From Paracoccaceae bacterium (GTDB taxonomy: Bacteria > Pseudomonadota > Alphaproteobacteria > Rhodobacterales > Rhodobacteraceae), in assembly GCA_046589965.1 (NCBI GenBank), contig JBKJVF010000232.1, positions 1 through 41,481 of the forward strand: DNA of 41,481 nt, given 5' to 3'. This document shows, in pieces, positions 961 to 25,981 of the stretch. The position numbers were made by a program, and so were the translations under genes. Every line of letters starts with the position of its first letter. Positions within the stretch are counted from its first letter, which is position 1. A model generated the notes under the pieces. It was not told the DNA's origin. It saw only the letters and a program-made list of their open reading frames with translations, and did no database searches.

Positions 961-2729
961 CACTTGCGGAAGCCTTGCCAACCTCCGGGGCTGTCGCGGC
1001 CCCGGTTCCCGTGCTGCGGGTAGAAGGCCTTTGCGTTTCGGTCCGCACTGAAGCTGGGTTGAAACCCTTGGTCGAGGACCTGTCCTTCACCCTGCACAAG
1101 GGCGAAACCCTTGCCATCGCAGGCGAAAGCGGATCGGGCAAATCCATCACCTCGCTCGCCATCATGGGCCTTCTGCCACCCCCCGCCGTGCGGGTGACGG
1201 GGGGGCGGGTGATGCTGGGGTCCGAGACCCTGACCGCCCTCCCCGAAGCCGCCCTCCGCGCCATCCGGGGCGACCGGATCGCGATGATCTTTCAAGAACC
1301 GATGACCTCGCTCAACCCGGTGATGACCGTTGGCGCCCAGTTGACCGAAGCCATCCGGGCGCATGACCCTGTCAGCCGCTCGGAGTCCGCAAAGCGCGCG
1401 GTTGAGGCGCTGAGGGCCGTTCGCCTGTCAGAACCGGAACGGCGGATGCGCCAGTATCCCCATGAGCTTTCCGGCGGCATGCGCCAACGCGTCATGATCG
1501 CCATGGCGCTGGCGCTGCGGCCTGAGGTGCTGATCGCGGATGAGCCCACCACTGCACTCGACGTCACCGTCCAGCGTGAGGTGCTGGATCTTCTGCGCGA
1601 CCTGCAACGAGACCTTGGCACGGCGATCATCCTGATCACGCATGACATGGGCGTGGTGGCGGAGATGGCTGACCGCGTCATCGTGATGCGGCAGGGACGT
1701 CAGGTTGAGACCGCGACGACCATCGACATTTTCGCCAGACCGAAAGCCGATTACACGCGCGCGCTTCTTGCAGCCGTGCCGCGCATGGGGCAGGGGGCCG
1801 CGCGTCCGCCAGTGACAAGCGAGCCCATCGCCAGGCTGACCGATGTTGTCGTCCGTTATCCGCTCCGCGGTGGCATTCTTGGTGGCATCACCCGGAATGT
1901 TCATGCGGTGGAACACGTCAGCTTTGACATACTGAAAGGTGAGACTTTCGCCCTGGTGGGAGAATCCGGCTGCGGCAAGTCAACCATCGCCAAGGCGCTG
2001 GTGGGCCTTGCCCCGCATCAGGGCCAGATCGAGATTGCCGGGCAATCCATGGAAACGCTTGATCCTGCGGGCCTCAAGGCCATGCGCCGCCGTGTGCAGA
2101 TGGTGTTTCAGGACCCGATGGCCGCGCTCAACCCTCGTATGCGGGTGGGCGAGCTGATTGCCGAACCGCTTGCGATCCATGGCATTGGCACCCCGGCGGA
2201 TCAGACCGGTCGCGCGCGCGACCTCATGGCTCGCGTGGGGCTGGAGGCGGCACAGCTTGACCGCTATCCGCATGAGTTTTCTGGCGGTCAGCGCCAGCGC
2301 ATCTGCATTGCGCGCGCGCTGGCACTGCAACCCGACCTCATCATTGCAGACGAAAGCGTTTCTGCCCTTGACGTGTCGGTTCAGGCCCGCGTGCTGGATC
2401 TGCTGCGCGATCTCCAGCGCGAATTTGGGGTGTCCTATCTCTTTATCAGCCACGATATGGCGGTGGTCAACAACGTGTCTGATCGGGTTGCCGTGATGTA
2501 TCTGGGTCAGATCGTCGAACTTGGAACGACGGCACAGATTTTCGGCAACCCGCAGCACCCCTACACTCGCCTGCTGATCGAGGCCGTTCCCATACCGGAC
2601 CCTGCCCGCGCGCGTGCGACCATCCCCCGCAGAGCGTCAGACTTGCCCAGTTCGTTGCACCCACCGGGCCACGCGCCGCAACGTTTGTCTTTGGTAGACA
2701 TTGGTGACGGCCACTTGGTTGCCACATAA
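957..2729 (+). CDS. ABC transporter ATP-binding protein with two fused ATPase domains (peptide/nickel DppD-DppF/GsiA-like)
   Basis: 590 aa with two Walker A motifs (GESGSGKS, GESGCGKS), two ABC signatures (LSGGMRQR, FSGGQRQR) and two Walker B motifs (LIADEPTTALD, IIADESVSALD). Confidence 0.9.
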   Translation: MTLAEALPTSGAVAAPVPVLRVEGLCVSVRTEAGLKPLVEDLSFTLHKGETLAIAGESGSGKSITSLAIMGLLPPPAVRVTGGRVMLGSETLTALPEAALRAIRGDRIAMIFQEPMTSLNPVMTVGAQLTEAIRAHDPVSRSESAKRAVEALRAVRLSEPERRMRQYPHELSGGMRQRVMIAMALALRPEVLIADEPTTALDVTVQREVLDLLRDLQRDLGTAIILITHDMGVVAEMADRVIVMRQGRQVETATTIDIFARPKADYTRALLAAVPRMGQGAARPPVTSEPIARLTDVVVRYPLRGGILGGITRNVHAVEHVSFDILKGETFALVGESGCGKSTIAKALVGLAPHQGQIEIAGQSMETLDPAGLKAMRRRVQMVFQDPMAALNPRMRVGELIAEPLAIHGIGTPADQTGRARDLMARVGLEAAQLDRYPHEFSGGQRQRICIARALALQPDLIIADESVSALDVSVQARVLDLLRDLQREFGVSYLFISHDMAVVNNVSDRVAVMYLGQIVELGTTAQIFGNPQHPYTRLLIEAVPIPDPARARATIPRRASDLPSSLHPPGHAPQRLSLVDIGDGHLVAT

Positions 2730-3821
2730 GCGGCCAGGTCGGACTACGTCCATCCAACAAACGAATTTAGAGTGTTCGCGAGTATTCTTCTACCCTTGGC
2801 TATCCATCAGTCGGCCACCCAAGACCCGCTATGGCGAAGACGCGAGGACAGGGTGGAATGACCCTTCGCGAATTGTCTTGACGGCGGCTTTGGATACTTT
2901 GTCGCGCGACGCGACGTGCCGCGCCGGATCACAAATGCGTAGCCCACCGGAACCTAACTCCAACACCCAGAAACGGTTCTTCATATCAGTCGTCGAACCT
3001 GAACGTAGCGAACGACCGCTTTCCGCCGAAACCAACCTTCCACTGAACCCAGAACAAACAACGAAAACAAAGTTCGAATCCAATTTCACGTCAACTCGGA
3101 CGCCAGTCGGCTCGAACTCCAATTAAGTGTGGCAAATATTCAAATTGCTACAGATACTTAGACGCTCAACACCGAATTGGCGCAGTCATCAGGTTTGGAG
3201 AAGACGTTCTCCAAGAAAACGTCTCAGGCCACCACGGTACCTAGACCAGTGCTCAGCCCGGCCCGCATAATCCCTGGAAACAGCGCAAAAAATTAGGCCA
3301 CAGCCGGATAGGGAGAACGCTTTCGTTGTGGCACGTGGCGGAGGAAACGCGACTGCGGACGAACCTTCTCTGGTGCATAAACTATTGTTTTTATTATATC
3401 TTATACCGGTCCGAATCCCATTTGACGAAACGTGACTGACATCCAGACAGGGCGATCTAGCCAACTTCGCCGTCATGATCGACCGACCGCTGAGAAAATG
3501 ACAGGCCGCCATCAATTTTTGTGAAGACCTCACCGAAGTGCCAACGCCAATGCTCGGACGTATCCACAAATCACAATGTTTCCAGCGGCCAGCATCGGAC
3601 TGAACCAACGCCACCAGTAGCGGACGGTGTCATGGCCGCTCTCGTTGCCATGCTCGTGGAGAAGGTCTTCGACGATGCTGAGCGACAGTGGGAAGCGGAT
3701 TTAGAGTATCACCGCCTGGCAGATGATATAGGGGCAGGTCTTTAAGTAGCGAAATGCGAGCGCTGGGTCATCTAGCGAGGGTAGTGGCGCTGAAGTCACG
3801 TGGCAACAAAAACTCCTTTGA

Positions 3822-4078
3822 CACGACCAGGTTCGGCTGCAACTGCAGGCGCTAGCCTACAACCTGGCGACCTTCTCGCGCTGTATCGAACAACCCGAGG
3901 CCATGGCCGATTGGTCTTTGACCAGCCTCCAACTGAAACTCATCAAGATCGGCGCCGCGTCGTCCGTCACACCCGCGCAATCACCTTTCAATTTGCGGAA
4001 GCTGCGGTCACCGGCCCGATGGTGCGCGCCATCCTCGCCGCCATCCGCCGCCTTCGAGCGCCACCGCTATGCGCGTAA
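3822..4078 (+). pseudogene. C-terminal remnant of a DDE transposase (IS1380-like), frameshifted
   Basis: Frame 3 reads QVRLQLQALAYNLATFSRCIEQPEAMADWSLTSLQLKLIKIGA. The homologous tail continues in frame 2 as RVVRHTRAITFQFAEAAVTGPMVRAILAAIRRLRAPP. This matches the characteristic end of IS1380-type transposases (..LAYNL..WSL..LR.KLIKIGA.VV.H.R...FQ.AE.AV). No intact N-terminal part and no terminal inverted repeats were seen. The family assignment is from memory. Confidence 0.55.
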
Positions 4079-4377
4079 CCGCAATCCTGGCCCAAAGTGA
4101 ACGAAAGCGGCACGACAGGCCAGTGAGCCGCGGTGAAAAACGGGCTCGCCGGGTAAGGATGGCCAAGCTTTGCTGCCCAGTCGACGCACATTCGAGCGCA
4201 CTGGCAAGCGCAGTCGAGGCCGGAAGGGCAAATCACTTGATTTGGAGGCAAAATCCGGCGACCTTGGTATCAAGCGGCAGGCCATTTGAGGAATTTTGGG
4301 CTAGATCTCCAGCGTCCCCTCAGCTGGCGCTTTCCTTCTCCGCCGCTTGGGTATGACTGTGGAAAGGAAGGCTGGAC

Positions 4378-4998
4378 ATGTTTGGCAACGCGCAGACGAT
4401 TTCGCTGATGACCATCCACGATGATTGTGCCGGTGAAGGGGCAAACCTAGCGTTTCCCAACATGTCCTCCTGCGCTGCCATCGTGTGCGTCCTGGGGGAC
4501 CGCTTGGTGGGTATTCACAAAACGCTAGGAGCGATCACAGGCAAGCAGCTCGCCCTATTCGAATATGCCAAATCCCTGATCGACAATGATACGGTTTACA
4601 AGATCGTCATTACCGGTTGGAAGGCAGGAGTGGGCTGTACCGTTGGGCACGATGCCGCGACTGTCCGCAACGCGCTCGGCAATCCGAATGTTGCCACATA
4701 TTTTTTCAATCTTGCGACCACGACGAAGGGTAGCCGCGACAGCGATGCGTACAAGACTGGCACGTCCAAAAGCAAAATGTCTGACCTGTGCACGTTCGCG
4801 GCGCGAAACGGCACAGACTTCCCGCGGATAACAGTTAAGCGCACCACCAAAGTGACCAACGCAAACATTGCGACGCCAACGCTTCGGGCGGCGGGCCACA
4901 AAGACGTCTCGCCAGCGTTCCGGTTCGGCGCGGTGGCTGAAGACGTGACCAGTTCGCATGATCACGCAATCAGCCAGAACAAGTTCACACAGGTCTGA
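4378..4998 (+). CDS. hypothetical protein (orphan, 206 aa)
   Basis: Strong SD (GGAAAGGAAGG) 6 nt before the ATG. Lower-GC context. No family recognised. Contains an SSCAAIVCVLGDRLVGIHKT Cys..His segment. Confidence 0.55.
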   Translation: MFGNAQTISLMTIHDDCAGEGANLAFPNMSSCAAIVCVLGDRLVGIHKTLGAITGKQLALFEYAKSLIDNDTVYKIVITGWKAGVGCTVGHDAATVRNALGNPNVATYFFNLATTTKGSRDSDAYKTGTSKSKMSDLCTFAARNGTDFPRITVKRTTKVTNANIATPTLRAAGHKDVSPAFRFGAVAEDVTSSHDHAISQNKFTQV

Positions 4999-5388
4999 GC
5001 TGGCACTCGGTTCGCGGAGGCGAAGTGCATTAAGGATGAGAACTCTACCCAATTAAAAATAATTGGCTGGCGGCTTTCCTCAATTGAACCGCGAGACCCA
5101 TCTGTCTAAATGCCAACTGCGGACTTTGGCCCACCGGAAAGCTCCGAAAATGGTTGACCGATGGCACGGCGTCGGAAAGTCTTTGCCGATAAGATGATGT
5201 TGCCAATGTTTTTGATCTCGTGGTTTGGACAGGTCCGGACAGTATCGATTGATGGAGGCTTGATGCGAAGAACCCTTGCGTGGACGTGACTTCTGTTTCT
5301 TATTCCGATCTCGCCGGTTGCGGCGCAAGAACGTCGGGTCGCCGATTTCACTTGGCAAGAGCTAGCCGTTCTGGCGGCGGCAGATGGA

Positions 5389-5937
5389 GTGGGCGACACT
5401 GCATTTGGCTACGAGATTGGACTTGCCAGCGGCGGCGACGAATTCGAGAAACGGGCTGACCAGCGCGCGCTGATCCAGTTTCTGCGGGACGAGGCAGCGC
5501 TGCGGACTTTAGGCGATTCAGGTTGGCGCGAGGATCTCTCCGCCATAATACTGAGTTTGTCGGTGGATGTTGCCGTCCCAACGTTCGATTTTGACGACAA
5601 GATGTTCCGATTCTGCATTCCATTGTAGGTCAATTTCGACCCGGACCCGGGTCTGGCAGGCTCGTCGCTCCAGATCGAATACATCCAGCTGGCAGTGGAT
5701 TTTTATGGGCACGACAGTGGTCTGTGGGCGTTCCTGCCGCAGAGCAGTGGCGATGAGACCGACCGGCCTTTCCGCGACGGGTATGCCGTCAATCCCGGTG
5801 CGCCGGGGGTCAGCATCAATGTCGGCAACACCGCTACGGAAAAGCTCAAGGACGAAGCCGACGCTGAACGCGTCTACCGCCCCTGTTTTCACGAGCATGT
5901 GGCTAGCCCCTACGGGCTATCAACCGTCCCCAAATAA
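5389..5937 (+). pseudogene. hypothetical ORF interrupted by an in-frame TAG (5626-5628)
   Basis: ORFs 5389-5628 and 5695-5937 are in the same frame and separated only by one TAG. Codon usage on this strand looks coding (GAC/GGC/CTG/ATC bias). The frame is open back to 5290 without an ATG, suggesting N-terminal truncation as well. Confidence 0.4.
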
Positions 5938-6039
5938 CTATCGTTGCCAATATCTTGCACAGGTCAGGTCTGACACCGCAGTGAGCTGCCGAACATCACG
6001 CAATTCGGTCCAAACCGCTCTGCCTGTACTAAAGTTTTG

Positions 6040-6160
6040 CACCCTCAAAGCAGCACGCCGGGATGGCCTTTGACCATCCCGGCGACGATGCCGTCGCGCG
6101 GACACGACTACATCAGGGCACCGGGAACAAGTGGGACGAGGGAACGAACCTGCCCGGCGA
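6040..6160 (-). ncRNA. candidate EcfG-dependent small RNA 2 (downstream of ndvB)
   Basis: An exact GGAAC-N16-CGTT lies at 6191..6167 (minus strand). There is no plausible ORF downstream. The C-rich core GUUCCCUCGUCCCACUUGUUCC (6145..6124) is followed by a 10-bp hairpin (GCCGGGAUGG/CCAUCCCGGC, 6083..6057) and then GUGCUGCUUUG. The ends are estimates. Confidence 0.35.
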
Positions 6161-6166
6161 GTGACC

Positions 6167-6191
6167 AACGCCCGCGGAACCAACTGGTTCC
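6167..6191 (-). promoter_or_regulatory. EcfG-type promoter motif GGAAC-N16-CGTT (drives candidate sRNA 2)
   Basis: The plus strand reads aacg(6167-6170)-N16-gttcc(6187-6191). It lies in the 304-nt gap between the ndvB stop and the TAG-interrupted ORF. Confidence 0.5.
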
Positions 6192-6241
6192 CACAATCTA
6201 TGACCACCAAAGTGTATGCCCAAAAACTCGACCATTGAGCC

Positions 6242-9200
6242 TCAGGGCAGAGCTGTTATGGCACCGGGCGGCGCGGCCCCCAGGGTCAGGTGAACCCGCG
6301 TCACTCCGTCAGCAAAGGGCATGTTGAACGCGCCGCCAGCGTGTTCGGCAGCCTCGCCATTGATGGCCACTTTCGCGATGCCATGGCCCGATCCTTCGGG
6401 ATTTGCCACGACAACCTCGACCGTTGCGCCTCGGTGGCGGACAGTGACCGAAACACCCGCCCACGCTTTCGGGATTGTGGGATCAATCACCAGATGATCG
6501 CCCGCCCGGGTCAGGCCCATGATCCCCTCGATCCCGGCGCGGTACATCCAGCCTGCGGCCCCTGTATACCATGACCAGCCAACGCGTCCTTCGTGGGGGG
6601 CGGTGGAATAGACATCCCCCGCAATCGCGTAAGGCTCGCCCCGGTATCGCGCTGCATCATCGGGTGTCAGGGCGTGATTGATCGGGTTCAGAATGACAAA
6701 CAGGTCCACTGCCTTGTCACCCTGCCCCAGCATCGCATAAGCCATCACCACCCACATCGCCGCATGGCTGTACTGCCCGCCATTTTCGCGCAGGCCGGGC
6801 GGGTAGCCCTTGATGTACCCCGGGTCGAGCGCGGTGCGGTCGAAGGGCGGTGCGAACAACAGCGCAAGCCCCGGGTCGCGGCGGATCAGCCGTTCACCGA
6901 CCTCGGCCATTGCCTGACTGGCACGTGCGGGGTCGCCAGCGCCCGAAAGCACCGCCCAGGACTGCGCGATGCTGTCGATCTGGCATTCGTCTGACGTGGC
7001 GGACCCCAGAAGGGAGCCATCATCAAAGGTGCCCCGCCGGTACCATTGCCCATCCCAGGCATTGGCCTCGATCGCGGCGCGCACGGTTTCAGCATGCGCA
7101 CGCCAGCGGGTCGCGCGCGCAGGATCGCGGACATCCGCCAGCGGTGCCAGCATCGTGACGGTCCGGATGAACAGCCATCCCAGCCAGACGCTGGTGCCTT
7201 GGCCATGTTCGCCGACGCGGTTCATCCCGTCGTTCCAGTCGCCGGTGCCGATCAGCGGCATCCCATTCGCGCCAGTCAGTTCAATGCACTGGTCGATGCC
7301 GCGCGCGCAATGCTCCCACACGCTGGCGGTCTGATCGGACGCGCCCGGCTGGAAAAAGCTGTCATGCGCACCCGCTGGCACCTGCGGTCCGTCCAGAAAC
7401 GGCACCATTTCGTCCAAGATAGCTTTATCGCCACTGACCGCAACATAGCGGGCCACGCCAAAGCCCAGCCAGACCCGGTCGTCCGAAATTCGGGTCCGCA
7501 CGCCCTGCCCGGAATGTGGCAACCACCAATGCTGCACATCGCCCTCGGGAAACTGCCGCCCCGCCGCGCGCAACAGGTGTTCGCGGGTCATTTCAGGCCG
7601 GCTGAAGGTCAGCGCCATGCCATCCTGCAACTGGTCGCGGAAGCCATAGGCACCACTCGCCTGATAAAAGCCCGCCCGCGCCCAGATGCGACAGGACAGT
7701 GTCTGATACAGCAACCAGCCATTCAGCAAGATGTCCATCGACCGGTCTGGTGTCTTGACCTGCACCGATCCAAGCAAGTCGCCCCAATGCGCGGAAACCT
7801 GATCTTGCACCGCATCCAGATCCGCGCTGCGAAACCGGGATATCAGATCGCGCGCGGCCTCGATGCTCTCCGCCTGTCCCAGCAGCAGTTGGACCTCGAC
7901 CCTTTGGCCGGGGGCAAGGGTGACAATGCGTTGCTGTGCGGCGCAAGGATCGAACCCTGCCCCGACACGCCCCGACAGCTTTTCCCCGCGCAATCCACGC
8001 GGATCGGCCATGCTGCCGCCTGTGCCCAAGACTTCAGCGCGGTCGCATGTGTGGCCGTGAACCTGCGACCCCATATCGGCGAAGGCGACGCGCCCGGGAA
8101 ACGCCATCGCAAAGGGGTTTCTCGCCATCAGGGCGCCCGTCTCGGGATCGCGCTCGGTGGTGACGGTCGCTGCCGACACGTTGCGCGATGTCCCCAAGAC
8201 CCATTCGGCATAACTCGTCACGGACAAACGACGCGGACGATCCGACCGGTTGTGCAAGGTCAGCCGGGTTATCCGCAAGGGCGCATCCATCGGCACTGTC
8301 TGCACCATGCTGGAGGCAATCCCCCCTTGCTGGTAATCAAACCGCGAATATCCAAACCCGTGCCGCGCGACATAAGTCCCTTTGCCCCGCATCGGCAGCG
8401 CGGTCGGCGTCCAGATCGCGCCGCTGTCTAGGTCGCGCAGATAGATCGCCTCGCCGGGGGCGTCGGTGACCGGGTCGTTTGACCAGGGCGTCAACAGGTT
8501 TTCGCGGCTGTTGCCCGCCCAAACCGCACCTGCCCCCTCAGCCGACACCACGAAACCAAAGTCCGGATTGGCGATCACGTTGACCCATGGCGCGGGCGTC
8601 GTTGCACCGCGCTTCAGCACGGTCACGTATTCCCGGCCCCCGGCATCAAAGCCGCCCGTGCCGTTCCAGAACTCCAGTTCCGGCAGGTCCGGCTCCGCGA
8701 TCGGTTCTGTCGGCATGGCCACCGGCTCTGGCAGCTTCAGGGGTGCGAGTGCTGGCAACGCATCCAACTGCTGGCTGATATCCCCCCGGCTTGCGGTCAG
8801 TACGACCCGCGCCACCGAAAGCAGCAACGCACGGGTTTCCGGCGTGACCAGATCGGCGCGCAGCACATGCACGACGCCTTGCGTGCGCGTCGCACCCTCA
8901 GTCCGCGGGCGGGAATGCGCTGTGCGCACCGCGGCCTCGATGGCGATCTGCAAGTCCTGCACATAGGACGACGACCGATCATTCAGAATGACCAGGTCTA
9001 CGGCCAACTGGCGTGCCCGCCAGTATTCGTGGGCGGCAAGAATCTGGCGCACCTGGCCCACATCTGTCGTGTCATCGATCCGCATCAGAACGATCGGCAG
9101 GTCACCTGAAATGCTGTGCGGCCACAGCCCCGATTGCGGCCCTGCGCCCGCTATGATGCGTCCCGAATGTACCCGCAGCCGTGGATCGCCGCGCAAGATC

Positions 9201-12200
9201 ATGCCCGCAAGTGTCTGAAAATCCGCAGCTTCGGTGTTCGAGATGCTCAGATGGCGCAATTGCACCTGCGCTTGCGTCCAAGCCAGCGTGGATGCGCGTT
9301 CAAAGGCCGACGGATCGCGGTGGCGATCCACCAGGTCCAGAAGGGCCACATGATTGTCGGCCACCATGGTCCAGAAGGTGACCCGCGCCATCCCGCCTGG
9401 CGGGACCAGGACCCGGCGGCGGATCGAAAAGATCGGGTCAAGGACTGTCCCCGTGGTGCCCGACAAAGGTTCTGTCGCCATCGCCGCCCGCGCCAGACGC
9501 CCACCTCGCCCGATGAACCGCGCGCGGTCCGTTTCGTGTTGCATGGGGGCCGTCTCGTCGCCCTCCACGACCGCAATATGGGCCGCCCAAACCTCCGGCT
9601 CGCTTGGCGAACGACGCCGGCGGGTCGCGATCAGCACCCCGAGTTCCGGCATGAAGTCGGTAACGACAAACATCTTGGAAAAGGCCGGATGCGCAAGGTC
9701 GGCCGAATGCGGGGCCAGCGCCAGTTCCATATAGGAAGTAAGGTCGATCTCGCGGGCCGTCCGGCCAGAGTTGTTCAGGGTGACACGTCGCGCCTCGGCA
9801 TCATCTTCGGCCGAAACCACCACTTCGGTCACGGATGCCAGGGTGCGTGCATGTGCGATGAAACTGGCTTGATGCTCGCTGAAGACAGCGCTGTGCAACT
9901 GGGGCACCGCACCGGTCGGCCCTGACGCCGCCGACCAGAGTTCGCGCCGTTGCGGGTCATGCAGAAAGATGAACGCGCCCAGATCGTCGACCGTCATATC
10001 GCCGCGCCAGCGGGTAACGTCGAGGTCACGCCAGCGGCTGTAGCCCGCACCCGTCGGCGTCACCATCACGCCATACCGCCCGTTGGACAAAAGATGCCCC
10101 GTCGGAAGCGCAGTGGCCGGGGCGTCGAACCGCCGGGTCCGCGGCATATCTGTCGGGTCTGCGGCCCGGATCGCGACCTCTTCGGCGCGCGGGCGCGCCA
10201 CCGCCACGTCGCGCGGCACGCGTTCCTGCAACAGCAGATCTACCGCCTGCATCATCGGGACCGCATGGAACCGGGTCCGGAACAGTCCATCCAGCGCGAC
10301 ATTGGCGATGGCGGTAATCGTCATGCCCTGATGATGCGCCATGAAGCTGCGGACAATCGCGCAGTCCTTGTCTTCCGGCAACCGGGCCGGGGTAAAATCC
10401 ACCGCCTCATAAAAACCAAAGCGCCCCTCGGCCCCCATCGCGGCAAGACGCGTGTAGTTCTGTACCGCGCCCGCAGGGTCCACCATTGCGGCAAGACCGG
10501 TGGCATAGGGCGCAATCACCAGGTTCTGGCTCAACCCACGTTTCAACCCAAGGCCCGGCACACCGAAGTTCGAATACTGGTAGGTCATTTCCAGATCACG
10601 GGCGTTGTAGGCGGACTCCGATATCCCCCACGGAACGCCATGCGCCGCACCATAAGATTGCTGACGGGCCACGATCAGCCTTGTCGTCTGGGCCAGCACC
10701 GAACCCGCCGGTGCCCGCATGACCAGCGATGGCATCAGGTATTCAAACATCGACCCCGACCACGAGATCAGCGCCGCACCGGTGCCGACGGGCGTGGCCG
10801 ATCGTCCCAGCCGGAACCAGTGCCGCGTGCGGACGTCCTTTTTTGCGATCGCGAAGAGGCTCGCCAGACGTGCTTCGGACGCCAGAAGATCATAGCAGTT
10901 GGGATCGACGGAATTGGTGGCAACTGAGTACCCGATCGACAACAGCTCTTTGTCGGGATCGAGCATAAACGCAAAGTCCATCTCCATGGCGAAGCGGTCG
11001 GCGGTGTCGGCAAGGGCAGCAAGCTGCCCCGCATGCGACGTGCCCGCACCTGGGCTTTCGGTCAGTCTTTTGACCATGGCCGCAGTCCAATAGCCAAGCT
11101 CGGTCCCCGCCCCCACAAGTGCGATGACAGCCTGATGCGCAAGTTCGGCATGCCGCAAAAGACTGTCGCGATCTGGTTCCTCCAGACTCGCGTCGATGGC
11201 ATCAAGGGCTTTGCTGCATGAGGCGCAGGCCGAGGCAAGCTTTTCGGTGCGCGCAAGTTCGATCCGCGCCAAGGCCAGCATGTCGCGCACCCCTGCAAAC
11301 AGCTGTTCGTCGCCTTGCGTCTGCACCGCCCATTCCCGGCACGATTGCGCCACCGCGATCAGATGGCCGGCCAGGTTTCCGCTATCGACGGACGACACAT
11401 AGGCCGGGTCCAGCACACGCAGGTCGGTCGTGTCGTACCAGTTGTAAAGATGGCCTCGGAACCGTTCCATCCGGCCCATCGTGTCCAGCGTTTCTTGCAG
11501 ACGTCGGATGGCGTCGGCCTCGGAAATCCAACCCATCTCGCGCGCAGCCGCCACCGACAGAAGGTATAGCCCGATATTGGTCGGCGACGTCCTGTGCGCA
11601 ATTGCGGGGTATGGGATTTCCTGAAAGTTGTCGGGCGGCAGGAAGTGGTCTTTTTCGGTCACGAAGGTTTCAAAGAAACGCCACGTGCGCCGCGCGATCA
11701 GCCGCAATGCCACAAGGTCGGTCGGGGTAATGGCATCCACGACCTTGGCGCGTTGCGGGCGGCTGATGCGTTCGGCAACCAATGGTGCCAGCGCCCAGAT
11801 AATAGCGAATGGCACAACAAGTGGCCAAACTGCCGGGTTCACGACAAGCACGACTGCTGCAGACACCAGGGCAAGTACGACCCCACCGGCCATGAACCAG
11901 TACTGCCCGACCAGCCCCGGACGACCCGACGCCCCCGCCTGTGCCGCGGTCAGCCATTCCAGAAAATGCCGCCGGGTGAAAGCCAGCCTGCGAACGGTGC
12001 GACCGATGGCATCGCCCATGCGCCACGCCTGATCGGCCAGAAACACGATGCTTAGCGTGACCTGCGCCAGCGCAAACAAGGTGTCCGAGCCCAAAGCCGC
12101 AAAATGCGGACGCAGGCTCAGCCCAAGGCGACGCGGCACGATGGCATGCGGCAAACCCAACAGCCGCGGCAATGACACCATCGCCAAGATGACAAGGGTC

Positions 12201-14683
12201 CAGATCGCCGCCTGCGTCAGGGGCAGCATCCAGCCCGCCACCAATGCGGCAAAGGTGAAGGGTCCCACCAACGAGCGGCGCAGGTTGTCGGTCATCTTCC
12301 ACAGCCCGACCGTTGGCACCCCGCCGCGCTCGGTTTTGCGCGCCCCGAAAATCCAGGGCAGCAATTGCCAGTCGCCGCGCGCCCAACGATGCTGGCGTTT
12401 AACAGCGACATCAACGCGGGCGGGGAAATCCTCGATCACCTCGATGTCCGACGCCAGCGCCGCCCGCGCAAATGTGCCTTCGAAAAGATCATGGCTCAAC
12501 ATCGTGTTGTCGGGCACCCGCCCGTCCATCGCCGCCATGAAGGCGTCAACGTCATAAATGCCCTTGCCCGTAAAGGACCCCTCACCAAAAAGGTCCTGAT
12601 AGACGTCCGATATCGCCGCCGCATATGGCTCGATCCCGCCGGGACTGGAAAAGACGCATTGATAGAGCGATCCCTCCAACCCCACGGGCAGCGCGGGCGT
12701 CACGCGCGGCTGCAAGATACCGTAGCCTTCGGTCACCCGCTGCAGGGCCGGATCGAAGATCGCTGCATTCATCGGATGCGCCATCTTGCCGATCAACGCC
12801 CGAACCGTATCACGCGGCAATCGCGTATCGGCATCCAGCGTGATGACGTATCGCACATCGGCCGGCACGCGGTCATAGCCGGCTTCAAATGTCGTGTCGG
12901 TGGCCCCGCGCAGCAGGCGGTTCAGCTCGTGCAGCTTGCCGCGCTTGCGCTCCCACCCCATCCAGACGCCTTCGGACGGGTTCCACAGCCGCCGACGGTG
13001 CAACAGCAGGAACCTGCTTCCATGCTCCATCGGATAGCGTTGGTTCAGTTGCTCCACCGCTTCGGCAGCGGTGCGGATCAGGCCGGCGTCCTGCGCCAGC
13101 GTCTCGGTGGCGGCGTCCGGGCCATCCGTCAACAGCGCATAATGGACCGCGCCATCGATGCTCGACAGATAATGGACCTCAAGCCGTTCTATCTGTTCCA
13201 GAAGGTCGCGTTCATCCGCCAGAAGGACAGGAACCGCAACCAGCGTCCGCAGGTGTCCCGGCACGCCGCCGGTCAGTTGCATTCCCGGCAAGGGATGCGG
13301 GGCGACCGTGCGCGTGACAATGTCGTTGACCAGAGCAGTCCCAAGGTCAGAAGCGGGGAAAACACCCAGAACCGCCAAAGGCAATATCATCCATAGCGGC
13401 GCGCCGACCAGCCAGAGCGCTGACAGCAAGACCACGAGTGATGCAAACGCGATGATCCCGACATAACTGCCAAGCCCCCAGGCCGCGATGGCGCGAAAGA
13501 GGCGCGACCGAAATCGCGGCACATAGGCAACTGCTGCCTCAAGGGACGCCCGGCCGCGCCCCAAAAGCACATAGCCCGGGTCTTTTTCGCGTGCAGTGGT
13601 GCCTTTCGCGGCCAGCGCCAGCACCGCGTCCACGACGGCCAGTTCATCCGGGAGGCTGCCCGCACCTTTGCCCCGCGCGACCCCGCGGGCCACTTCTTCG
13701 ATGGCCGTGCGGTAACTGTTGCGGGTCGCGAAATCCATCGCGGCAAAGTCGGATCCTTCGAGGAGCCTCGCATCGACCAGACTGACCGCCTCGAAGAACT
13801 CCGCCCAGTCAAGTTCGGAAATGACCCGCATGCTGGTGACGATATTACGCATAGTGACGTTGGACGCGCCCTGTCGCTGCAACGCGCGTTGCACAACCTC
13901 GTCAACATCGGTGCCCTGCCTGCGCAGCCGGTCTTCGAGCCACCCATGAAGCGGGGTTTCGACGGGATCCAGACCACGCAGCCGCCGCGCGAGTTGCCCC
14001 GCGATGATTTCCGGCAGCGGAGCGTTGTCATAGGCAGCAACCGCGATGTGCAACGGCATCGCGGGCCCCGATGTGCCGGTCACCCTGTCCACCAAGGCGT
14101 CAGCCTCGGCCCGCAGCGTTTGCGCTTCAGCAATCTGCACCGCCAAACGGCGCATGTTTTCAATCAGCACGATCCGCAAGGTAATCGCGACCGCCCAGAT
14201 CTCGCCGATCATCAAAGGCGTTCGTCGCTGATAGGCCTGGACGAACCGCGTCAGGACAGGGCCTGAGATCAAGCTGTCGGTATGCGCAACATAGGACCAC
14301 GCGATTGAGAAAACGCGCGGATAGCCAGCAAGATGCCCTTCGTCCAGCTTGGGCAATTGACGGTAAAAGCCAGGCGGCAAATCCTCGGTGATTTGCCGCA
14401 GCTGAAGTTCAACCAGGTGGAAATTGTCCAGCAGCCATTCAGCCGCAGGTGTGACCACCCGCCCACGCTGCAATTCGGCCGCACTCGCACGGTAGGTGGT
14501 CAGCAATATTTGGGCGTTGTGCTTGAGCCGGCGTATCAGGCTCGGCACAGGTGGGGCATTGGGCGTGACCCTCTGCGCATCGGCAAGGGTTTCGGCATGA
14601 TGCTCCAGCCGTTCAGTCCCGAAAAGATCTGCCCGTATTGGCGCTGCGTCGCGCCAGGTCGAAATGGTCTTTGCTGGTCTCAA
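6242..14683 (-). CDS. ndvB: cyclic beta-1,2-glucan synthase (NdvB/ChvB/Cgs; GT84 glycosyltransferase plus GH94 phosphorylase-like C-terminal domain)
   Basis: 2813-aa ORF. Conserved N-terminus APIRADLFGTERLEHHAETLADAQ, several TM blocks, the processive-GT motif QHRWARGDWQLLPW and a long C-terminal glycoside phosphorylase-like region. Size and architecture match the known synthases of about 2.8-2.9 k aa. The only start codon between an in-frame TAG (9 codons upstream) and the conserved N-terminus is TTG at 14683. Confidence 0.97.
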   Translation of the reverse strand: MRPAKTISTWRDAAPIRADLFGTERLEHHAETLADAQRVTPNAPPVPSLIRRLKHNAQILLTTYRASAAELQRGRVVTPAAEWLLDNFHLVELQLRQITEDLPPGFYRQLPKLDEGHLAGYPRVFSIAWSYVAHTDSLISGPVLTRFVQAYQRRTPLMIGEIWAVAITLRIVLIENMRRLAVQIAEAQTLRAEADALVDRVTGTSGPAMPLHIAVAAYDNAPLPEIIAGQLARRLRGLDPVETPLHGWLEDRLRRQGTDVDEVVQRALQRQGASNVTMRNIVTSMRVISELDWAEFFEAVSLVDARLLEGSDFAAMDFATRNSYRTAIEEVARGVARGKGAGSLPDELAVVDAVLALAAKGTTAREKDPGYVLLGRGRASLEAAVAYVPRFRSRLFRAIAAWGLGSYVGIIAFASLVVLLSALWLVGAPLWMILPLAVLGVFPASDLGTALVNDIVTRTVAPHPLPGMQLTGGVPGHLRTLVAVPVLLADERDLLEQIERLEVHYLSSIDGAVHYALLTDGPDAATETLAQDAGLIRTAAEAVEQLNQRYPMEHGSRFLLLHRRRLWNPSEGVWMGWERKRGKLHELNRLLRGATDTTFEAGYDRVPADVRYVITLDADTRLPRDTVRALIGKMAHPMNAAIFDPALQRVTEGYGILQPRVTPALPVGLEGSLYQCVFSSPGGIEPYAAAISDVYQDLFGEGSFTGKGIYDVDAFMAAMDGRVPDNTMLSHDLFEGTFARAALASDIEVIEDFPARVDVAVKRQHRWARGDWQLLPWIFGARKTERGGVPTVGLWKMTDNLRRSLVGPFTFAALVAGWMLPLTQAAIWTLVILAMVSLPRLLGLPHAIVPRRLGLSLRPHFAALGSDTLFALAQVTLSIVFLADQAWRMGDAIGRTVRRLAFTRRHFLEWLTAAQAGASGRPGLVGQYWFMAGGVVLALVSAAVVLVVNPAVWPLVVPFAIIWALAPLVAERISRPQRAKVVDAITPTDLVALRLIARRTWRFFETFVTEKDHFLPPDNFQEIPYPAIAHRTSPTNIGLYLLSVAAAREMGWISEADAIRRLQETLDTMGRMERFRGHLYNWYDTTDLRVLDPAYVSSVDSGNLAGHLIAVAQSCREWAVQTQGDEQLFAGVRDMLALARIELARTEKLASACASCSKALDAIDASLEEPDRDSLLRHAELAHQAVIALVGAGTELGYWTAAMVKRLTESPGAGTSHAGQLAALADTADRFAMEMDFAFMLDPDKELLSIGYSVATNSVDPNCYDLLASEARLASLFAIAKKDVRTRHWFRLGRSATPVGTGAALISWSGSMFEYLMPSLVMRAPAGSVLAQTTRLIVARQQSYGAAHGVPWGISESAYNARDLEMTYQYSNFGVPGLGLKRGLSQNLVIAPYATGLAAMVDPAGAVQNYTRLAAMGAEGRFGFYEAVDFTPARLPEDKDCAIVRSFMAHHQGMTITAIANVALDGLFRTRFHAVPMMQAVDLLLQERVPRDVAVARPRAEEVAIRAADPTDMPRTRRFDAPATALPTGHLLSNGRYGVMVTPTGAGYSRWRDLDVTRWRGDMTVDDLGAFIFLHDPQRRELWSAASGPTGAVPQLHSAVFSEHQASFIAHARTLASVTEVVVSAEDDAEARRVTLNNSGRTAREIDLTSYMELALAPHSADLAHPAFSKMFVVTDFMPELGVLIATRRRRSPSEPEVWAAHIAVVEGDETAPMQHETDRARFIGRGGRLARAAMATEPLSGTTGTVLDPIFSIRRRVLVPPGGMARVTFWTMVADNHVALLDLVDRHRDPSAFERASTLAWTQAQVQLRHLSISNTEAADFQTLAGMILRGDPRLRVHSGRIIAGAGPQSGLWPHSISGDLPIVLMRIDDTTDVGQVRQILAAHEYWRARQLAVDLVILNDRSSSYVQDLQIAIEAAVRTAHSRPRTEGATRTQGVVHVLRADLVTPETRALLLSVARVVLTASRGDISQQLDALPALAPLKLPEPVAMPTEPIAEPDLPELEFWNGTGGFDAGGREYVTVLKRGATTPAPWVNVIANPDFGFVVSAEGAGAVWAGNSRENLLTPWSNDPVTDAPGEAIYLRDLDSGAIWTPTALPMRGKGTYVARHGFGYSRFDYQQGGIASSMVQTVPMDAPLRITRLTLHNRSDRPRRLSVTSYAEWVLGTSRNVSAATVTTERDPETGALMARNPFAMAFPGRVAFADMGSQVHGHTCDRAEVLGTGGSMADPRGLRGEKLSGRVGAGFDPCAAQQRIVTLAPGQRVEVQLLLGQAESIEAARDLISRFRSADLDAVQDQVSAHWGDLLGSVQVKTPDRSMDILLNGWLLYQTLSCRIWARAGFYQASGAYGFRDQLQDGMALTFSRPEMTREHLLRAAGRQFPEGDVQHWWLPHSGQGVRTRISDDRVWLGFGVARYVAVSGDKAILDEMVPFLDGPQVPAGAHDSFFQPGASDQTASVWEHCARGIDQCIELTGANGMPLIGTGDWNDGMNRVGEHGQGTSVWLGWLFIRTVTMLAPLADVRDPARATRWRAHAETVRAAIEANAWDGQWYRRGTFDDGSLLGSATSDECQIDSIAQSWAVLSGAGDPARASQAMAEVGERLIRRDPGLALLFAPPFDRTALDPGYIKGYPPGLRENGGQYSHAAMWVVMAYAMLGQGDKAVDLFVILNPINHALTPDDAARYRGEPYAIAGDVYSTAPHEGRVGWSWYTGAAGWMYRAGIEGIMGLTRAGDHLVIDPTIPKAWAGVSVTVRHRGATVEVVVANPEGSGHGIAKVAINGEAAEHAGGAFNMPFADGVTRVHLTLGAAPPGAITALP

Positions 14684-14880: not shown

Positions 14881-14931
14881 CAGCCACTCCTTCCAAATTT
14901 GGGAGGGGACCTCATCGTCCCGCATCAAACA

Positions 14932-14956
14932 AACGCGATGCATTCACTTTGGTTCC
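14932..14956 (-). promoter_or_regulatory. EcfG-type promoter motif GGAAC-N16-CGTT upstream of the small ORF and ndvB
   Basis: The plus strand reads aacg(14932-14935)-N16-gttcc(14952-14956). It lies 52 nt upstream of the ATG at 14880. Confidence 0.7.
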
Positions 14957-17129: not shown

Positions 17130-17152
17130 TCTGATACGGATCACGATGGAAA

Positions 17153-17176
17153 GGCCCGCATGTGGCGGGCCTTTTT
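17153..17176 (+). terminator. Rho-independent terminator after the PRC-barrel gene
   Basis: GGCCCGC-loop-GCGGGCC followed by TTTTT. Confidence 0.75.
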
Positions 17177-17212
17177 CATGCGTCGACCCCCAGACCGTCT
17201 GGCGCATGAATA

Positions 17213-17238: not shown

Positions 17239-17266
17239 TTGCTGTATCGTCCGGTAAAGTCAGTAT

Positions 17267-17440: not shown

Positions 17441-17485
17441 GGTGGTCTCCTCAGAATTGATGGCGTCAGTTGCCATTGGGTTACC

Positions 17486-17851: not shown

Positions 17852-19621
17852 TCAGGCCGCTGAAGCATCCGCATCCAATGCGTCATGGGACGAAAGCAGG
17901 GGGAAATCGATGCGGACGAAATAGCTGCCGTCACGCTCTCCGACATTCAGGGTGCCTGACAATTGCGTGGCAAACGCCGACAGAAGCTGTTGGCCCAACC
18001 CTGTGTTGTCGGGGTCGGGCGACAGGGTCGGTCTGCGGCTTTCCGACATCGTGTTGACCACTTCCAGCGCGGCGCGGCCTGCCCCTGCCTCGTGGAACGA
18101 AACGGTCAGCAGGGTCTTTTGGTTTGCATTCTGACCCGAATGTTTCAGGGCATTGGTCAGGGCCTCGGTCAATATCAGCGACAGGGGCACCGCCTGATCG
18201 GGCGTCATCCGGATCCGGTCAAAGCTGGTCTTTGTCTCGATTTGACGGTCGTCCGATGCGCCCCCGCGCACCACCTGTGCCACGATGGTCTGCAACAGCT
18301 CATCCGCCAGCACATCCGTCAGCCCACTGGTCTGGTAAAGTTCGCGGTGCACGATCGCCAGACTCATGACCCGATCATGGAGCCCTTTCAGCAATTGCCG
18401 GGCCTCTGGCGCCACGGATTTGCGCATCTGCAGGTTCATGATCGAGGCGATAAGCTGCAGGTTGTTTTTGACCCGGTGATGAACCTCGCGCAGGAGCACC
18501 TCTTTTTGGTGCAACGAGTTTTCCAGTTCGGCCTCGTCATGCATGACCGACGACATCATCCGCTCATAAGCCTTGCCGACATCACGCAGTTCATTGGGTG
18601 CCAGGCTCAGATCCGGTGGCTTGACGATGCGGCTGCCGTCCGCAAATGCGATGATGGACGCGCGCAAGGCCCGAACATGGCGCAGCACCTGATATTCCGC
18701 CGTCAACCACGCCACCAGCAAACTCGCCAACCACATGGCAAAGGGAAAGACCCATAACGGCACCAATCCAGCCAGCGGCGAACTCGACGCGACGACTGCG
18801 GGCCAGGATGCAAGGACGTACAAGGTCCCGGGAACGATCGGAACCACAGTAAAGGTCCTCCGGTCTCCCAACGGCGTACTGGCCATGAAAGTTGCGGGCG
18901 GCTTATCCACAAATTCCACCAGCGGCATGCCCACGGGAAGCCTTTCGCCAATGGTCTCGATCCCGTAGATCGTCGTCAACACCGTGCCTTCGCCGTCAAA
19001 GGTGATCAGTGCCAACGGTTCAGACAGCTCCAGTTCTTTTTGCATCAAGCTGGGGGATGGATGCTCCAGCACCCTGTGCGGCAGTGACAAGGACACGTAA
19101 CCCAAAACCTCGCCCCCTTCGTCAAAGACCGGATGCGAAAAAATCAGCACGGACTCGCCGCTAACGGGCCCCTTGGGATTAACCTTCATCATAGGTTTGG
19201 GGTCTGCGTTCAATTTTACCAGGGCGGGGTTAAGGCCAAAGTCAAGCGCAACTCCTATGGAGGCGCAGGTTGTTTTTCCATCAGGTTGAATGAAGCCGGC
19301 AAAGCTGATCAAGGGTTCGCTTGCCACCAGCCCCCGCATGACTTCCACGCATGCCGCGCTGTCGTCGATGATGGGACGCACCGTCGTCGCCGTTGCCGCC
19401 GCAAGGCCTTTTGCAAGGTTTATCGCGGCAATTTGCGGCGTCGCTGCCAGAAGTGTTTCCCCAAAAAGCGCGGTTTGCCACCGCGCCTGCGCCTCCGATT
19501 CAAATTTTTCCGTCTGGAAAAAGGCCAGCAGCGCCAGGGGAGTAAGCGCAAGTGCCACGGCCGCCAACAATCGCACGCCAAGCCGACCGAAAAGTTGGCC
19601 GCGCAACGCGCGAGTGATCAT
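17852..19621 (-). CDS. HisKA_2/HWE-type sensor histidine kinase (PhyK-like GSR kinase)
   Basis: 589 aa. N-terminal TM, a periplasmic segment of about 250 aa and a second TM. H-box HHRVKNNLQLIASIMNLQ and a C-terminal ATPase region (LTEALTNALKHS, GLGQQLL). The start overlaps the ecfG stop (ATGA). Confidence 0.88.
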   Translation of the reverse strand: MITRALRGQLFGRLGVRLLAAVALALTPLALLAFFQTEKFESEAQARWQTALFGETLLAATPQIAAINLAKGLAAATATTVRPIIDDSAACVEVMRGLVASEPLISFAGFIQPDGKTTCASIGVALDFGLNPALVKLNADPKPMMKVNPKGPVSGESVLIFSHPVFDEGGEVLGYVSLSLPHRVLEHPSPSLMQKELELSEPLALITFDGEGTVLTTIYGIETIGERLPVGMPLVEFVDKPPATFMASTPLGDRRTFTVVPIVPGTLYVLASWPAVVASSSPLAGLVPLWVFPFAMWLASLLVAWLTAEYQVLRHVRALRASIIAFADGSRIVKPPDLSLAPNELRDVGKAYERMMSSVMHDEAELENSLHQKEVLLREVHHRVKNNLQLIASIMNLQMRKSVAPEARQLLKGLHDRVMSLAIVHRELYQTSGLTDVLADELLQTIVAQVVRGGASDDRQIETKTSFDRIRMTPDQAVPLSLILTEALTNALKHSGQNANQKTLLTVSFHEAGAGRAALEVVNTMSESRRPTLSPDPDNTGLGQQLLSAFATQLSGTLNVGERDGSYFVRIDFPLLSSHDALDADASAA

Positions 19622-20196
19622 GCGACTGCCAACCCGGATTGAAACACAACCCCCAAAGTCACGGCTTCGGTCAGGACAGGATTTCCGGTTGGACTGCTCA
19701 TCCCCATCATGTTTGCCAACTGCGCCCGGGCGCGACTTGCGCGGCTTTTGGCCGTGCCGGTCGCCACACCCATCATCTGCGCGGCTTCCTCGTAGGAATA
19801 TCCGTTTGCGCCAACAAGGGTCAGCACCTCGCGATGTTCGGCAGAAAGCTTGTTGAAGGCGACCATGAATTCACCCAAGGCAAGCCGTCCGTCATGCTGA
19901 GGCAATACCGCAAGCTTGCTTGCGTGAATGCCGTCGGGATCGGACACTTCGCGGCTGACCTTGCGGTGATAGGAAAAGAACGTGTTGCGCAGGATGGTGA
20001 ACAACCACGCCCGCAAATCCGTGCCGGGCGTAAACTTGTCGATGTTCGACCAAGCCTTGACGATCGTATCCTGAACCAGGTCATCCGCTGTGGCGTGATT
20101 GCGCGCCAACGACATTGCGAACGCACGCAAGTCGCGGATATGGAGGGTGATGTTGTCGCGCGGGTCGGCGCTGCCGCTTTCTAGCGATGCTTTCAT
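19618..20196 (-). CDS. ecfG: ECF sigma factor EcfG (general stress response sigma factor)
   Basis: DLVQDTIVKAWSNIDKFTPGTDLRAWLFTILRNTFFSYHRK (region 2) and YSYEEAAQMMGVATGTAKSRASRAR (region 4). Lies between nepR and the kinase with ATGA overlaps on both sides. Confidence 0.9.
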   Translation of the reverse strand: MKASLESGSADPRDNITLHIRDLRAFAMSLARNHATADDLVQDTIVKAWSNIDKFTPGTDLRAWLFTILRNTFFSYHRKVSREVSDPDGIHASKLAVLPQHDGRLALGEFMVAFNKLSAEHREVLTLVGANGYSYEEAAQMMGVATGTAKSRASRARAQLANMMGMSSPTGNPVLTEAVTLGVVFQSGLAVA

Positions 20197-20454: not shown

Positions 20455-20486
20455 ATCGAACTGATCAAAAAAGTGGGGAAGTGCAG

Positions 20487-21296
20487 ATGCCGTTTCAGGA
20501 AAAGCAAAGTGTCAGCGAGACAATTGGAAAAAATCTTCCATTTCTGCGCCGGTACGGTCGTGCGTTGACGGGAAACCAAAGCTCCGGTGATCGTTTTGCT
20601 GCGGCTACTCTGGAAGCGATACTTGCAGACCAGTCATTGATATCAGATGCAACCGATCACAAGGCGGCGCTCTTCAAGGCCTTTCATAGTCTTTGGTCCG
20701 GCACAGGCGCAATCTTGGGGACGCCCGACAGTTCCCTCTCGGCACGAGCCCAAGACCACATGGCGATGCTGACCCCGAACTCGCGCGAGGCTCTGCTGCT
20801 GAGCATCATCGAAGGTTTTACCACTGACCAGATTGCCTACATTCTGCAGACCGATCAGGAGGACGTCTCAGGCCTTGTGGCGGTTGCGTTCGCGGACATG
20901 GAGGCGTCGGTTGCGGGTGCGGTGATGGTGATCGAGGACGAGGCGATCATTGCCGCCGATATCGTAGACATCGTCCGAGGCGCCGGCCACCGCGTGACAG
21001 GCACCGCGCGCACCAAAGCGGAGGCTGTTGCCCTTGCCTTGCGTGATCGTCCGGACCTGATCCTTGCCGATATCCAGTTGGCGGACAAGTCATCGGGGAT
21101 CGACGCGGTCAACGAAATCCTGATCGAGTTTCCGCAGACGCCGGTGATCTTCATCACGGCCTTCCCAGACCGGCTGTTGACAGGTGAACGGCCGGAACCA
21201 GCCTTTGTGATCACAAAGCCGTTTTCCGAAGAACAGGTGCGCTCTGCCGTCGGGCAGGCCATGTTCTTTTCTTCGACGGAAACGCTGACCACTTGA
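20487..21296 (+). CDS. phyR: PhyR anti-anti-sigma response regulator (sigma-like N-domain plus receiver)
   Basis: LPFLRRYGRALTGNQSSGDRFAAATLEAIL is the PhyR N-terminal signature. The C-terminal receiver has VMVIEDEAIIAADI, LILADIQLAD and VITKPF. Start taken at the ATG 6 nt after GGGGAAG. Confidence 0.92.
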   Translation: MPFQEKQSVSETIGKNLPFLRRYGRALTGNQSSGDRFAAATLEAILADQSLISDATDHKAALFKAFHSLWSGTGAILGTPDSSLSARAQDHMAMLTPNSREALLLSIIEGFTTDQIAYILQTDQEDVSGLVAVAFADMEASVAGAVMVIEDEAIIAADIVDIVRGAGHRVTGTARTKAEAVALALRDRPDLILADIQLADKSSGIDAVNEILIEFPQTPVIFITAFPDRLLTGERPEPAFVITKPFSEEQVRSAVGQAMFFSSTETLTT

Positions 21297-25796: not shown

Positions 25797-25821
25797 GGAA
25801 CCAATCGAAAGCTCGGGCGTT
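25797..25821 (+). promoter_or_regulatory. EcfG-type promoter motif GGAAC-N16-CGTT (drives candidate sRNA 1)
   Basis: GGAAC(25797-25801)-N16-CGTT(25818-25821). It lies back to back (37 nt apart) with the promoter at 25735-25759. Confidence 0.7.
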
Positions 25822-25827
25822 AATAAA

Positions 25828-25947
25828 GCGAACCGGTCTGGATCAGCTTTTCCCTAGGCTGTTTCTGTTCCCTCTCCCGCCGGTTCCACGCTCTCTTCCC
25901 CAGAGAATGTGACTGAGGCCGCAGGTTTGTCCTGCGGCCTTTTTTTT
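25828..25947 (+). ncRNA. candidate EcfG-dependent small RNA 1 (about 120 nt, C-rich anti-SD-like loops)
   Basis: It lies between an exact EcfG motif and a strong intrinsic terminator. There is no ORF: the only ATG is followed immediately by TGA. Predicted stems are AGCGAACCGG/CCGGTTccaCGCT, CAGC-UUUUCCCUAG-GCUG and UCUCU-UCCCC-AGAGA. The core is GUUCCCUCUCCCGCCGGUUCC (25867-25887). The 5' end is estimated from -10 spacing. Confidence 0.55.
25917..25947 (+). terminator. Rho-independent terminator of candidate sRNA 1
   Basis: GGCCGCAGG-tttgt-CCTGCGGCC followed by eight T. Confidence 0.85.
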
Positions 25948-25981
25948 CGCATGCGGCAGTGGCAGATGCCGACAGTGATCG

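Follow-up and report, generated by a model that had tools for sequence, protein, structure and literature searches.

Results

The window is a general-stress-response island with ndvB apparently in its EcfG regulon

The window, by which we mean the whole 41,481-nt stretch of DNA analyzed, represents a general-stress-response (GSR) island from an alphaproteobacterium that resembles Paracoccaceae; its NdvB and PhyR have their nearest named homologues in Paracoccaceae (Cypionkella, Tabrizicola, and Cereibacter). The GSR core comprises phyR (20481..21296), ecfG (19618..20196), and an HWE/HisKA_2 kinase gene (17852..19621). Exact EcfG-type motifs (GGAAC-N16/17-CGTT) occur 14 times in the window against an expectation of 0.79, a count reached by none of 100 shuffles; by chance, the motif has a density of about 0.02 per kb. 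At 11 of these promoters, a ribosome-binding site (RBS) and a start codon follow within about 40 to 60 nt, and one promoter lies inside coding sequence. The only two that lack a downstream RBS and start codon, at 6191(-) and 25797(+), precede noncoding, strongly folding DNA. The first belongs to a minus-strand element 3′ of ndvB, referred to here as unit 2, and the second to a comparator that we call sRNA 1. Unit 2 and the GSR kinase gene are about 11.7 kb apart, within the same EcfG-promoter-dense island.

EcfG sites elsewhere in the window include those at 17486-17511, 17812-17836, 23198-23223, 28706-28788, 32708-32733, and 36708-36733; the motifs drive CsbD-like, PRC-barrel, DUF2383, DUF892, pyridoxamine-oxidase-like, AI-2E transporter, and other genes. 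Divergent, overlapping, and palindromic EcfG promoters are found between nepR and phyR (20422-20454). An exact motif within the DUF2383 coding sequence, at 25545-25569(-), is either an internal promoter for downstream genes or a chance match. Between the housekeeping genes upstream of approximately 2730 and unit 2, which sits at the edge of the GSR island, positions 2700-6000 have a G+C content of 52 to 60%, compared with 62 to 67% in the flanks, and hold no genes recognizable by Pfam. Two ORF fragments in this region, 5389-5628 and 5695-5937(+), look like a single ORF broken by a frameshift.

The ndvB-type gene (6242..14683, minus strand) is a 2813-aa ORF whose homologues are named cyclic β-1,2-glucan synthetase and carry GH94 domains. 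Upstream of it lie an ORF of about 66 aa and, at 14956..14932(-), an exact EcfG promoter; the same combination of EcfG promoter and small ORF precedes ndvB in three related contigs (L003, L087, and L088). Because this arrangement is repeated in relatives, the cyclic β-1,2-glucan synthase appears to belong to the GSR regulon of the clade, and the ndvB operon would thus be in the same EcfG regulon as the genes listed above. Within 14683-14956(-), the small ORF begins MDWTSIEKKWNEMA, and its leader has CCCCUCCC upstream of the RBS GGAAGGAG.

Unit 2 has an EcfG-type promoter and a predicted three-hairpin fold

An exact GGAAC-N16-CGTT promoter occupies 6191..6167 on the minus strand, its -35 box beginning 50 nt past the ndvB stop codon (TGA, 6244..6242). 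An earlier, sequence-only reading of this DNA had described a promoter at this place in a 304-nt gap; the motif and its distance from ndvB can be read directly in the sequence, the gap measures 304 nt (5938..6241), and every element listed in that reading is present where it had been located. With a start about 6 to 8 nt past the -10 box and an end at the tail of the third hairpin, the predicted transcript spans 6045..6160(-) and has a length of about 110 to 116 nt. Its minimum free energy is -57 to -61 kcal/mol.

The predicted fold consists of three hairpins. In stem-loop 1 (6119..6159, minus strand), a 5′-terminal stem, GCCGGGCAGG/CUUG..CCCGGU, closes an exposed C-rich loop, UCGUUCCCUCGUCCC (6133..6147, minus strand), which is predicted to be unpaired and represents a putative seed. 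Stem-loop 2 (6087..6114, minus strand; GAUGU-A-GUCGUG...CGCGAC-G-GCAUC) has 11 pairs. Stem-loop 3 (6056..6084, minus strand) is a GC-rich hairpin, CGCCGGGAUGGUC/GGCCAUCCCGGCG, that we read as the 3′ end and terminator common to ndvB and unit 2. The hairpin with a weak U-tract noticed in the sequence-only reading is thus present, but it is 12 to 13 bp long and extends over 6084..6056, rather than being 10 bp long at 6083..6057. The tail that follows it, GUGCUGCUUUGA, is U-poor and interrupted and was not called by a simple terminator scan; with its U-tract eroded, the window copy may terminate inefficiently or be partly decayed. Hairpin 3 is unique in the window, and a repeated palindromic element was ruled out by its single occurrence.

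An orthologue of unit 2 is conserved behind ndvB in a second lineage

Contigs of relatives were collected by position, via NdvB homologues. One metagenome contig, L001, in which the NdvB C terminus is 86% identical to that of the window, carries an orthologue of unit 2 directly past the ndvB stop codon. Its promoter, GGAAC-N17-CGTT, lies 57 nt after the stop, with a spacer that has diverged and is one base longer. There follow 19 nt, the loop UUCGUUCCCCUGUCCC in a closing stem, a second hairpin, and CGCCGGGGUGGUC...GCCAUCCCGGCG with U7, so that hairpin 3 and U7 form a canonical terminator in this copy. A Rho-independent terminator with a U-tail, as expected of an Hfq-dependent base-pairing sRNA, is thus seen in L001, and the window copy has the interrupted tail GUGCUGCUUUGA at this place. 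Compared by blastn with the window, the L001 intergenic region gives just two matches, one to the RNA block and one to the phyR end; the block is 73% identical over 104 nt (E 6e-11; L001 1530-1631). Identity is highest in the hairpins (70% in stem-loop 1, 63% in stem-loop 2, and 86% in stem-loop 3) and lower around them (47% from the ndvB stop to the promoter, 56% in the promoter spacer, and 50% over the 100 nt past the hairpin, which we take to be about the level of unrelated sequence). The -35 and -10 boxes, the 16-nt C-rich loop, and the three hairpins are therefore what the two lineages have kept, and the flanks and downstream genes are not.

Both copies adopt the same predicted three-hairpin fold (z = -3.8 in the window and -4.1 in L001). 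Over the 33 proposed pairs, the two-sequence alignment has 98.5% paired cells, compared with 32 to 59% when the partners are slid. Among the 33 pairs, one change is compensatory, seven are one-sided and preserve pairing, and one pair is broken; helix covariation from two sequences is supportive rather than conclusive, and a shuffle control is uninformative at n = 2. In stem-loop 1, the L001 stem reads GCCGGCGAAG/CUUG..GCCGGU and holds one compensatory G-C to C-G pair, one G-U to A-U change, and the broken pair, whereas in stem-loop 2 five of the 11 pairs vary on one side and all are still paired in L001 (100% of cells). The C-rich loop is nearly invariant, with the form UUCGUUCCC-YY-GUCCC, and in the predicted ensembles of both copies the unpaired probability over UUCGUUCCCUCGUCCC is mostly at least 0.8 (mostly 0.8 to 0.9 or higher). 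Since the L001 orthologue keeps the promoter boxes, the C-rich loop, the three helices, and the terminator, the proposal of the sequence-only reading that the unit is sRNA-like, is driven by an EcfG promoter, and has a C-rich seed is supported.

The linkage between ndvB and unit 2 survives rearrangement: in L001, ndvB and the unit abut phyR, with 0.6 kb separating the unit from that gene, whereas their place in the window is on the kinase side of the GSR core. A third, truncated instance occurs in L003, a contig of a Cypionkella metagenome-assembled genome (GCA_053580715.1, contig JBMDUQ010000236.1; NdvB 73% identical), where GGAAC stands 53 nt past the ndvB stop and the contig ends 14 nt into the promoter. 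Known full copies number two (the window and L001), with the L003 copy cut off after the -35 box; organisms of the clade also include the one behind JGI contig Ga0672962_0015007. Unit 2 is absent after ndvB in other relatives whose NdvB is 70 to 77% identical (L002, L087, L088, and L095-97), in which the 3′ side of ndvB offers just 26 to 93 nt, or unrelated sequence, and we therefore consider the unit to be confined to a narrow clade.

A genome-collection scan and a metagenome scan added no orthologue. A covariance model of unit 2 (R2) gives the two copies scores of 137.5 and 126.5 bits and finds only these in 1.34 Mb. Scanning a genome collection with the NdvB C terminus gave matches of 52 to 67% identity from mixed phyla, none with unit 2. 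A metagenome pattern scan for the promoter plus loop returned two matches, both chance occurrences inside coding repeats, and plasmid searches with blastn and tblastn yielded no close relative. In Rfam, the window has no match at gathering scores, and 5800-6400 has none at E <= 10; the L001 copy yields only far sub-threshold matches, for example tfoR at 23.6 bits against 70. No Rfam family, including CcsR, the alpha-r sRNAs, and suhB/MmgR, matches unit 2. One further metagenome contig, L004, ends in Illumina adapter at 2450-2484 (AGATCGGAAGAGC), which makes whatever follows its ndvB fragment unreliable.

Unit 2 and sRNA 1 lack detectable homology

sRNA 1 (25797..25950, plus strand) has its EcfG promoter at 25797-25821 and an RNA of about 25826-25950, with a fold z of -5.4. 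With orthologues in L088, L089, L093, and L095-97, the family spans five lineages, the window included (copies at L088 11870-11748(-), L089 5441-5565, L093 8403-8525, and L095 15721-15848), and its members always stand beside DUF2383, DUF892, or AI-2E transporter genes. The family is marked by the invariant stems GAACCG/CGGUUC and GGCCGCAGG/CCUGCGGCC, by a second stem-loop whose loop has the form YUUCCCUG, and by a strong terminator. In two copies, TGTT replaces CGTT as the -10 box. The Rfam suhB/MmgR family gives a sub-threshold match to the 3′ half of the window sRNA 1, at 30 bits where the gathering score is 41.

The sequence-only reading had suggested that the two RNAs are paralogues that inherited a C-rich core of 21 to 22 nt. 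The two stretches exist as described, GTTCCCTCGTCCCACTTGTTCC at 6145..6124(-) in unit 2 and GTTCCCTCTCCCGCCGGTTCC at 25867..25887(+) in sRNA 1, downstream of the GGAAC-N16-CGTT at 25797..25821. The two RNAs are also similar in length, and each has an exact EcfG promoter, three hairpins, and a C-rich single strand just ahead of the 3′ strand of the 5′ stem. Measured against dinucleotide shuffles, a comparison that the earlier reading had itself proposed, the local alignment of the cores (score 25) is modestly above chance, being reached by just 15 of 2000 shuffles (p about 0.0075), but two unrelated places in the window score equally well against sRNA 1. The 8-mer GTTCCCTC is present four times in the window, against 1.1 expected.

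Comparison of the families rather than of the two window copies argues against common descent. A covariance model of the sRNA 1 family (R1; five sequences, 21 base pairs) scores its members at 111 to 122 bits, whereas unit 2 receives -2.5 bits (E 6 over 601 nt with the filters off). In the other direction, R2 misses the window sRNA 1, and its sole match to any sRNA 1 copy is to that of L093, at 11.4 bits (E 3.4). The GTTCC at the 3′ end of the core is in each RNA the 3′ strand of the closing stem; it is missing in L001, which has GAAGCC together with a compensatory change in the stem, and the sRNA 1 orthologues of L088 and L089 have not retained the core segment. Cross-comparisons of orthologues lose significance or align other parts, the best alignment of the L001 unit 2 with the window sRNA 1 falling at a T-tract instead of the core. 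The linker of the L093 sRNA 1, CCUUGUCCCACCGGUUCC, does resemble CCUCGUCCCACUUGUUCC of unit 2, a likeness reached by 37 of 1000 shuffles, but the stems, second stem-loops, and terminators of the two RNAs have no common sequence. No test supports a deep paralogy of unit 2 and sRNA 1, and we consider it unlikely. What they have in common appears to be a kind of seed, UCCC single strands at varying positions, rather than a homologous block, and unit 2 would belong to the same functional class as sRNA 1 while being not detectably homologous to it. For RNAs of this kind, a short common C-rich core is thus not evidence of paralogy. Weak R1 matches at 17144-17246 were rejected as sRNA candidates; two convergent terminators account for them, and the region (17140-17246) contains two back-to-back terminator hairpins between a PRC-barrel gene and a gene for a 57-aa membrane protein.

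Other readings of the conserved block

The 50 nt that separate the unit 2 promoter from the ndvB stop contain no hairpin, T-tract, or terminator, and the L001 layout is alike; ndvB and unit 2 would therefore have to share hairpin 3 as their 3′ end. A link to the ndvB 3′ region, which the sequence-only reading had raised as processing from it or action on it, is plausible on this ground. The block could then be merely the ndvB 3′ UTR and its terminator, the motif being unused and any small RNA arising by read-through or processing, and the facts that the terminal hairpin is the best-conserved part and that the block always travels with ndvB fit such a reading. We nevertheless regard it as quite improbable. 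An exact GGAAC-N16/17-CGTT stands at the same offset in two lineages despite a diverged spacer and a chance density of only about one in 50 kb, conservation extends to the 16-nt loop and two additional helices, features that a terminator can do without, and other relatives terminate ndvB within 26 to 93 nt without the block.

The weak U-tract of the window copy could let transcription continue into 5937..5389, and ORFs lie downstream on both strands, so that the block might be a cis-acting leader for a downstream minus-strand gene or, as had also been suggested, an antisense RNA to the decayed plus-strand ORF at 5389-5937. We discarded this very unlikely reading because the downstream DNA and its ORFs are unrelated between the window and L001, leaving nothing conserved behind the unit; in addition, a strong terminator directly follows the unit in L001, and the ORFs further on are implausible in composition and match nothing in Pfam. 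That unit 2 encodes a small protein is extremely improbable and was likewise dismissed: gene callers place a 62-aa ORF over the L001 copy and a 90-aa TTG ORF overlaps the window copy, but in the window AUG-UAG interrupts the L001 frame, the two copies have no conserved ORF spanning the unit, the window ORF begins upstream of the promoter and has no RBS, and the substitutions keep helices rather than codons, with no Pfam match.

Discussion

In this study, we find that the unit downstream of ndvB is a real, conserved feature, most likely a new GsrN-like, EcfG-driven sRNA in the ndvB 3′ UTR. That it is a genuine small-RNA gene of the alphaproteobacterial GSR seems probable to us, judging from the promoter, the fold, and their conservation in L001. 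EcfG-dependent sRNAs are, to our knowledge, known in detail only from Caulobacter GsrN, those outside the Caulobacteraceae being predictions.

GsrN of Caulobacter crescentus is a sigma-T/EcfG-dependent sRNA that base-pairs, through its loop, with a G-tract of the katG leader, and the GsrN family has been delimited by BLASTn homology (Tien et al. 2018, PMC5869019). GsrN-like sRNAs have been predicted beside GSR loci in Rhizobiaceae, Brucella, and Bradyrhizobiaceae on the basis of intergenic GSR-dependent transcription, proximity to ecfG-nepR-phyR, a near-consensus EcfG site, and a C-rich 5′ loop (Tien et al. 2018, Fig. 9, PMC5869019). At the sequence level, unit 2 has three of these properties, namely the EcfG site, the proximity to ecfG-nepR-phyR, and an exposed C-rich loop, the last as a prediction. 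Like GsrN, it combines a GGAAC-N16-CGTT promoter (for GsrN, from the sequence in Supplementary file 1 of that work) and a place in the GSR regulon with a length of about 100 nt and a 5′ stem-loop presenting an unpaired C-rich tract, followed by a probable 3′ intrinsic terminator, and by analogy we propose that it, too, may act through its C-rich loop on G-rich mRNA leaders.

The resemblance does not extend to sequence. Local alignment of GsrN with unit 2 scores 14 (window) and 13 (L001), against a shuffle mean of 15.4, with 833 to 928 of 1000 shuffles as good, so unit 2 is not a GsrN in the strict sense of sequence homology; sRNA 1 likewise shows no sequence resemblance to Caulobacter GsrN. 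The two differ in architecture, the 5′ domain of GsrN being a multiloop with an inner hairpin and that of unit 2 a simple hairpin, and in setting, GsrN being a free-standing gene distal to the GSR locus and unit 2 lying within the ndvB 3′ UTR. The GsrN-like predictions come from other orders and were compared by description, whereas the clade of unit 2 is Paracoccaceae-like. sRNA 1, with a 5′ stem, an inner hairpin, and a C-rich linker, fits the GsrN-like description better than unit 2 does. It resembles unit 2 in its EcfG promoter, three hairpins, UCCC-type single strands, and location in the same GSR island, but it is anchored to DUF2383/DUF892 genes rather than to the ndvB 3′ end, and its invariant stems are missing in unit 2.

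The nesting of unit 2 behind ndvB recalls DapZ and MicL of enterobacteria, 3′-UTR sRNAs that have their own promoter and a terminator common with the mRNA. At the sequence level, unit 2 shows the same features, lying on the same strand directly past the coding sequence with no intervening terminator and a promoter of its own at the 3′ end of the gene. Unlike in DapZ and MicL, this promoter lies past the stop codon instead of within the coding sequence, and the mRNA and the sRNA appear to depend on the same sigma factor. A C-rich loop also likens unit 2 to CcsR, alpha-r14/NfeR1, and suhB/MmgR of Rhodobacteraceae and rhizobia, which carry C/U-rich anti-Shine-Dalgarno-like motifs in hairpin loops, but those RNAs are driven by other regulators. 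A link to suhB/MmgR was considered and rejected, as the sub-threshold match is that of sRNA 1 only and the literature places SuhB under a LysR-type regulator rather than EcfG.

From promoter use and RNA ends to base pairing by the loop and any target, the steps of the following scheme are ones that we infer. Under stress, sigma-EcfG would start transcription near 6160 from the promoter at 6191..6167, as the motif and its conservation suggest. The RNA of about 110 nt is predicted to fold into the three hairpins also kept in L001, hairpin 1 presenting the unpaired loop UUCGUUCCCUCGUCCC, which could pair with G-rich, Shine-Dalgarno-like stretches of target mRNAs. If unit 2 behaves like Caulobacter GsrN and other sRNAs with a UCCC seed, such pairing would alter the translation or stability of the target. 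Read-through transcripts of EcfG-driven ndvB and the independent sRNA would share hairpin 3 as their 3′ end. When the loop was scanned for duplexes against start regions in the window and the 14 EcfG-gene leaders, nothing was clearly better than with shuffled loops; for the best leader, 0.04 of the shuffles were at least as good, uncorrected for 14 leaders.

We tentatively raise the possibility, doubtful as it is, that the GSR of this clade has a two-sRNA arm, one member of which resides in the EcfG-driven ndvB 3′ UTR, and that the seed is delivered both as an sRNA and as an mRNA tail, possibly by processing. If so, this two-way delivery would couple envelope or osmotic glucan synthesis to the regulation of targets with G-rich leaders.

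Should unit 2 prove real, the class of EcfG-dependent sRNAs would extend to the Paracoccaceae, and a single GSR island could carry two unrelated C-rich sRNAs. It would also illustrate how an sRNA driven by an alternative sigma factor can nest in the 3′ UTR of a gene belonging to that regulon, in this case the cyclic β-1,2-glucan synthase gene, and would thereby provide a simple circuit in which one sigma factor yields an enzyme mRNA and a regulator from a single locus.

Another EcfG-driven noncoding unit was seen in L002 at 17377-17528(+), between a PRC-barrel gene and a Crp gene. It has loops CCCCUCCC and UUUCCCUGUCC and a long terminator, and the sRNA 1 model matches it at a borderline level (16.7 bits, E 0.02).
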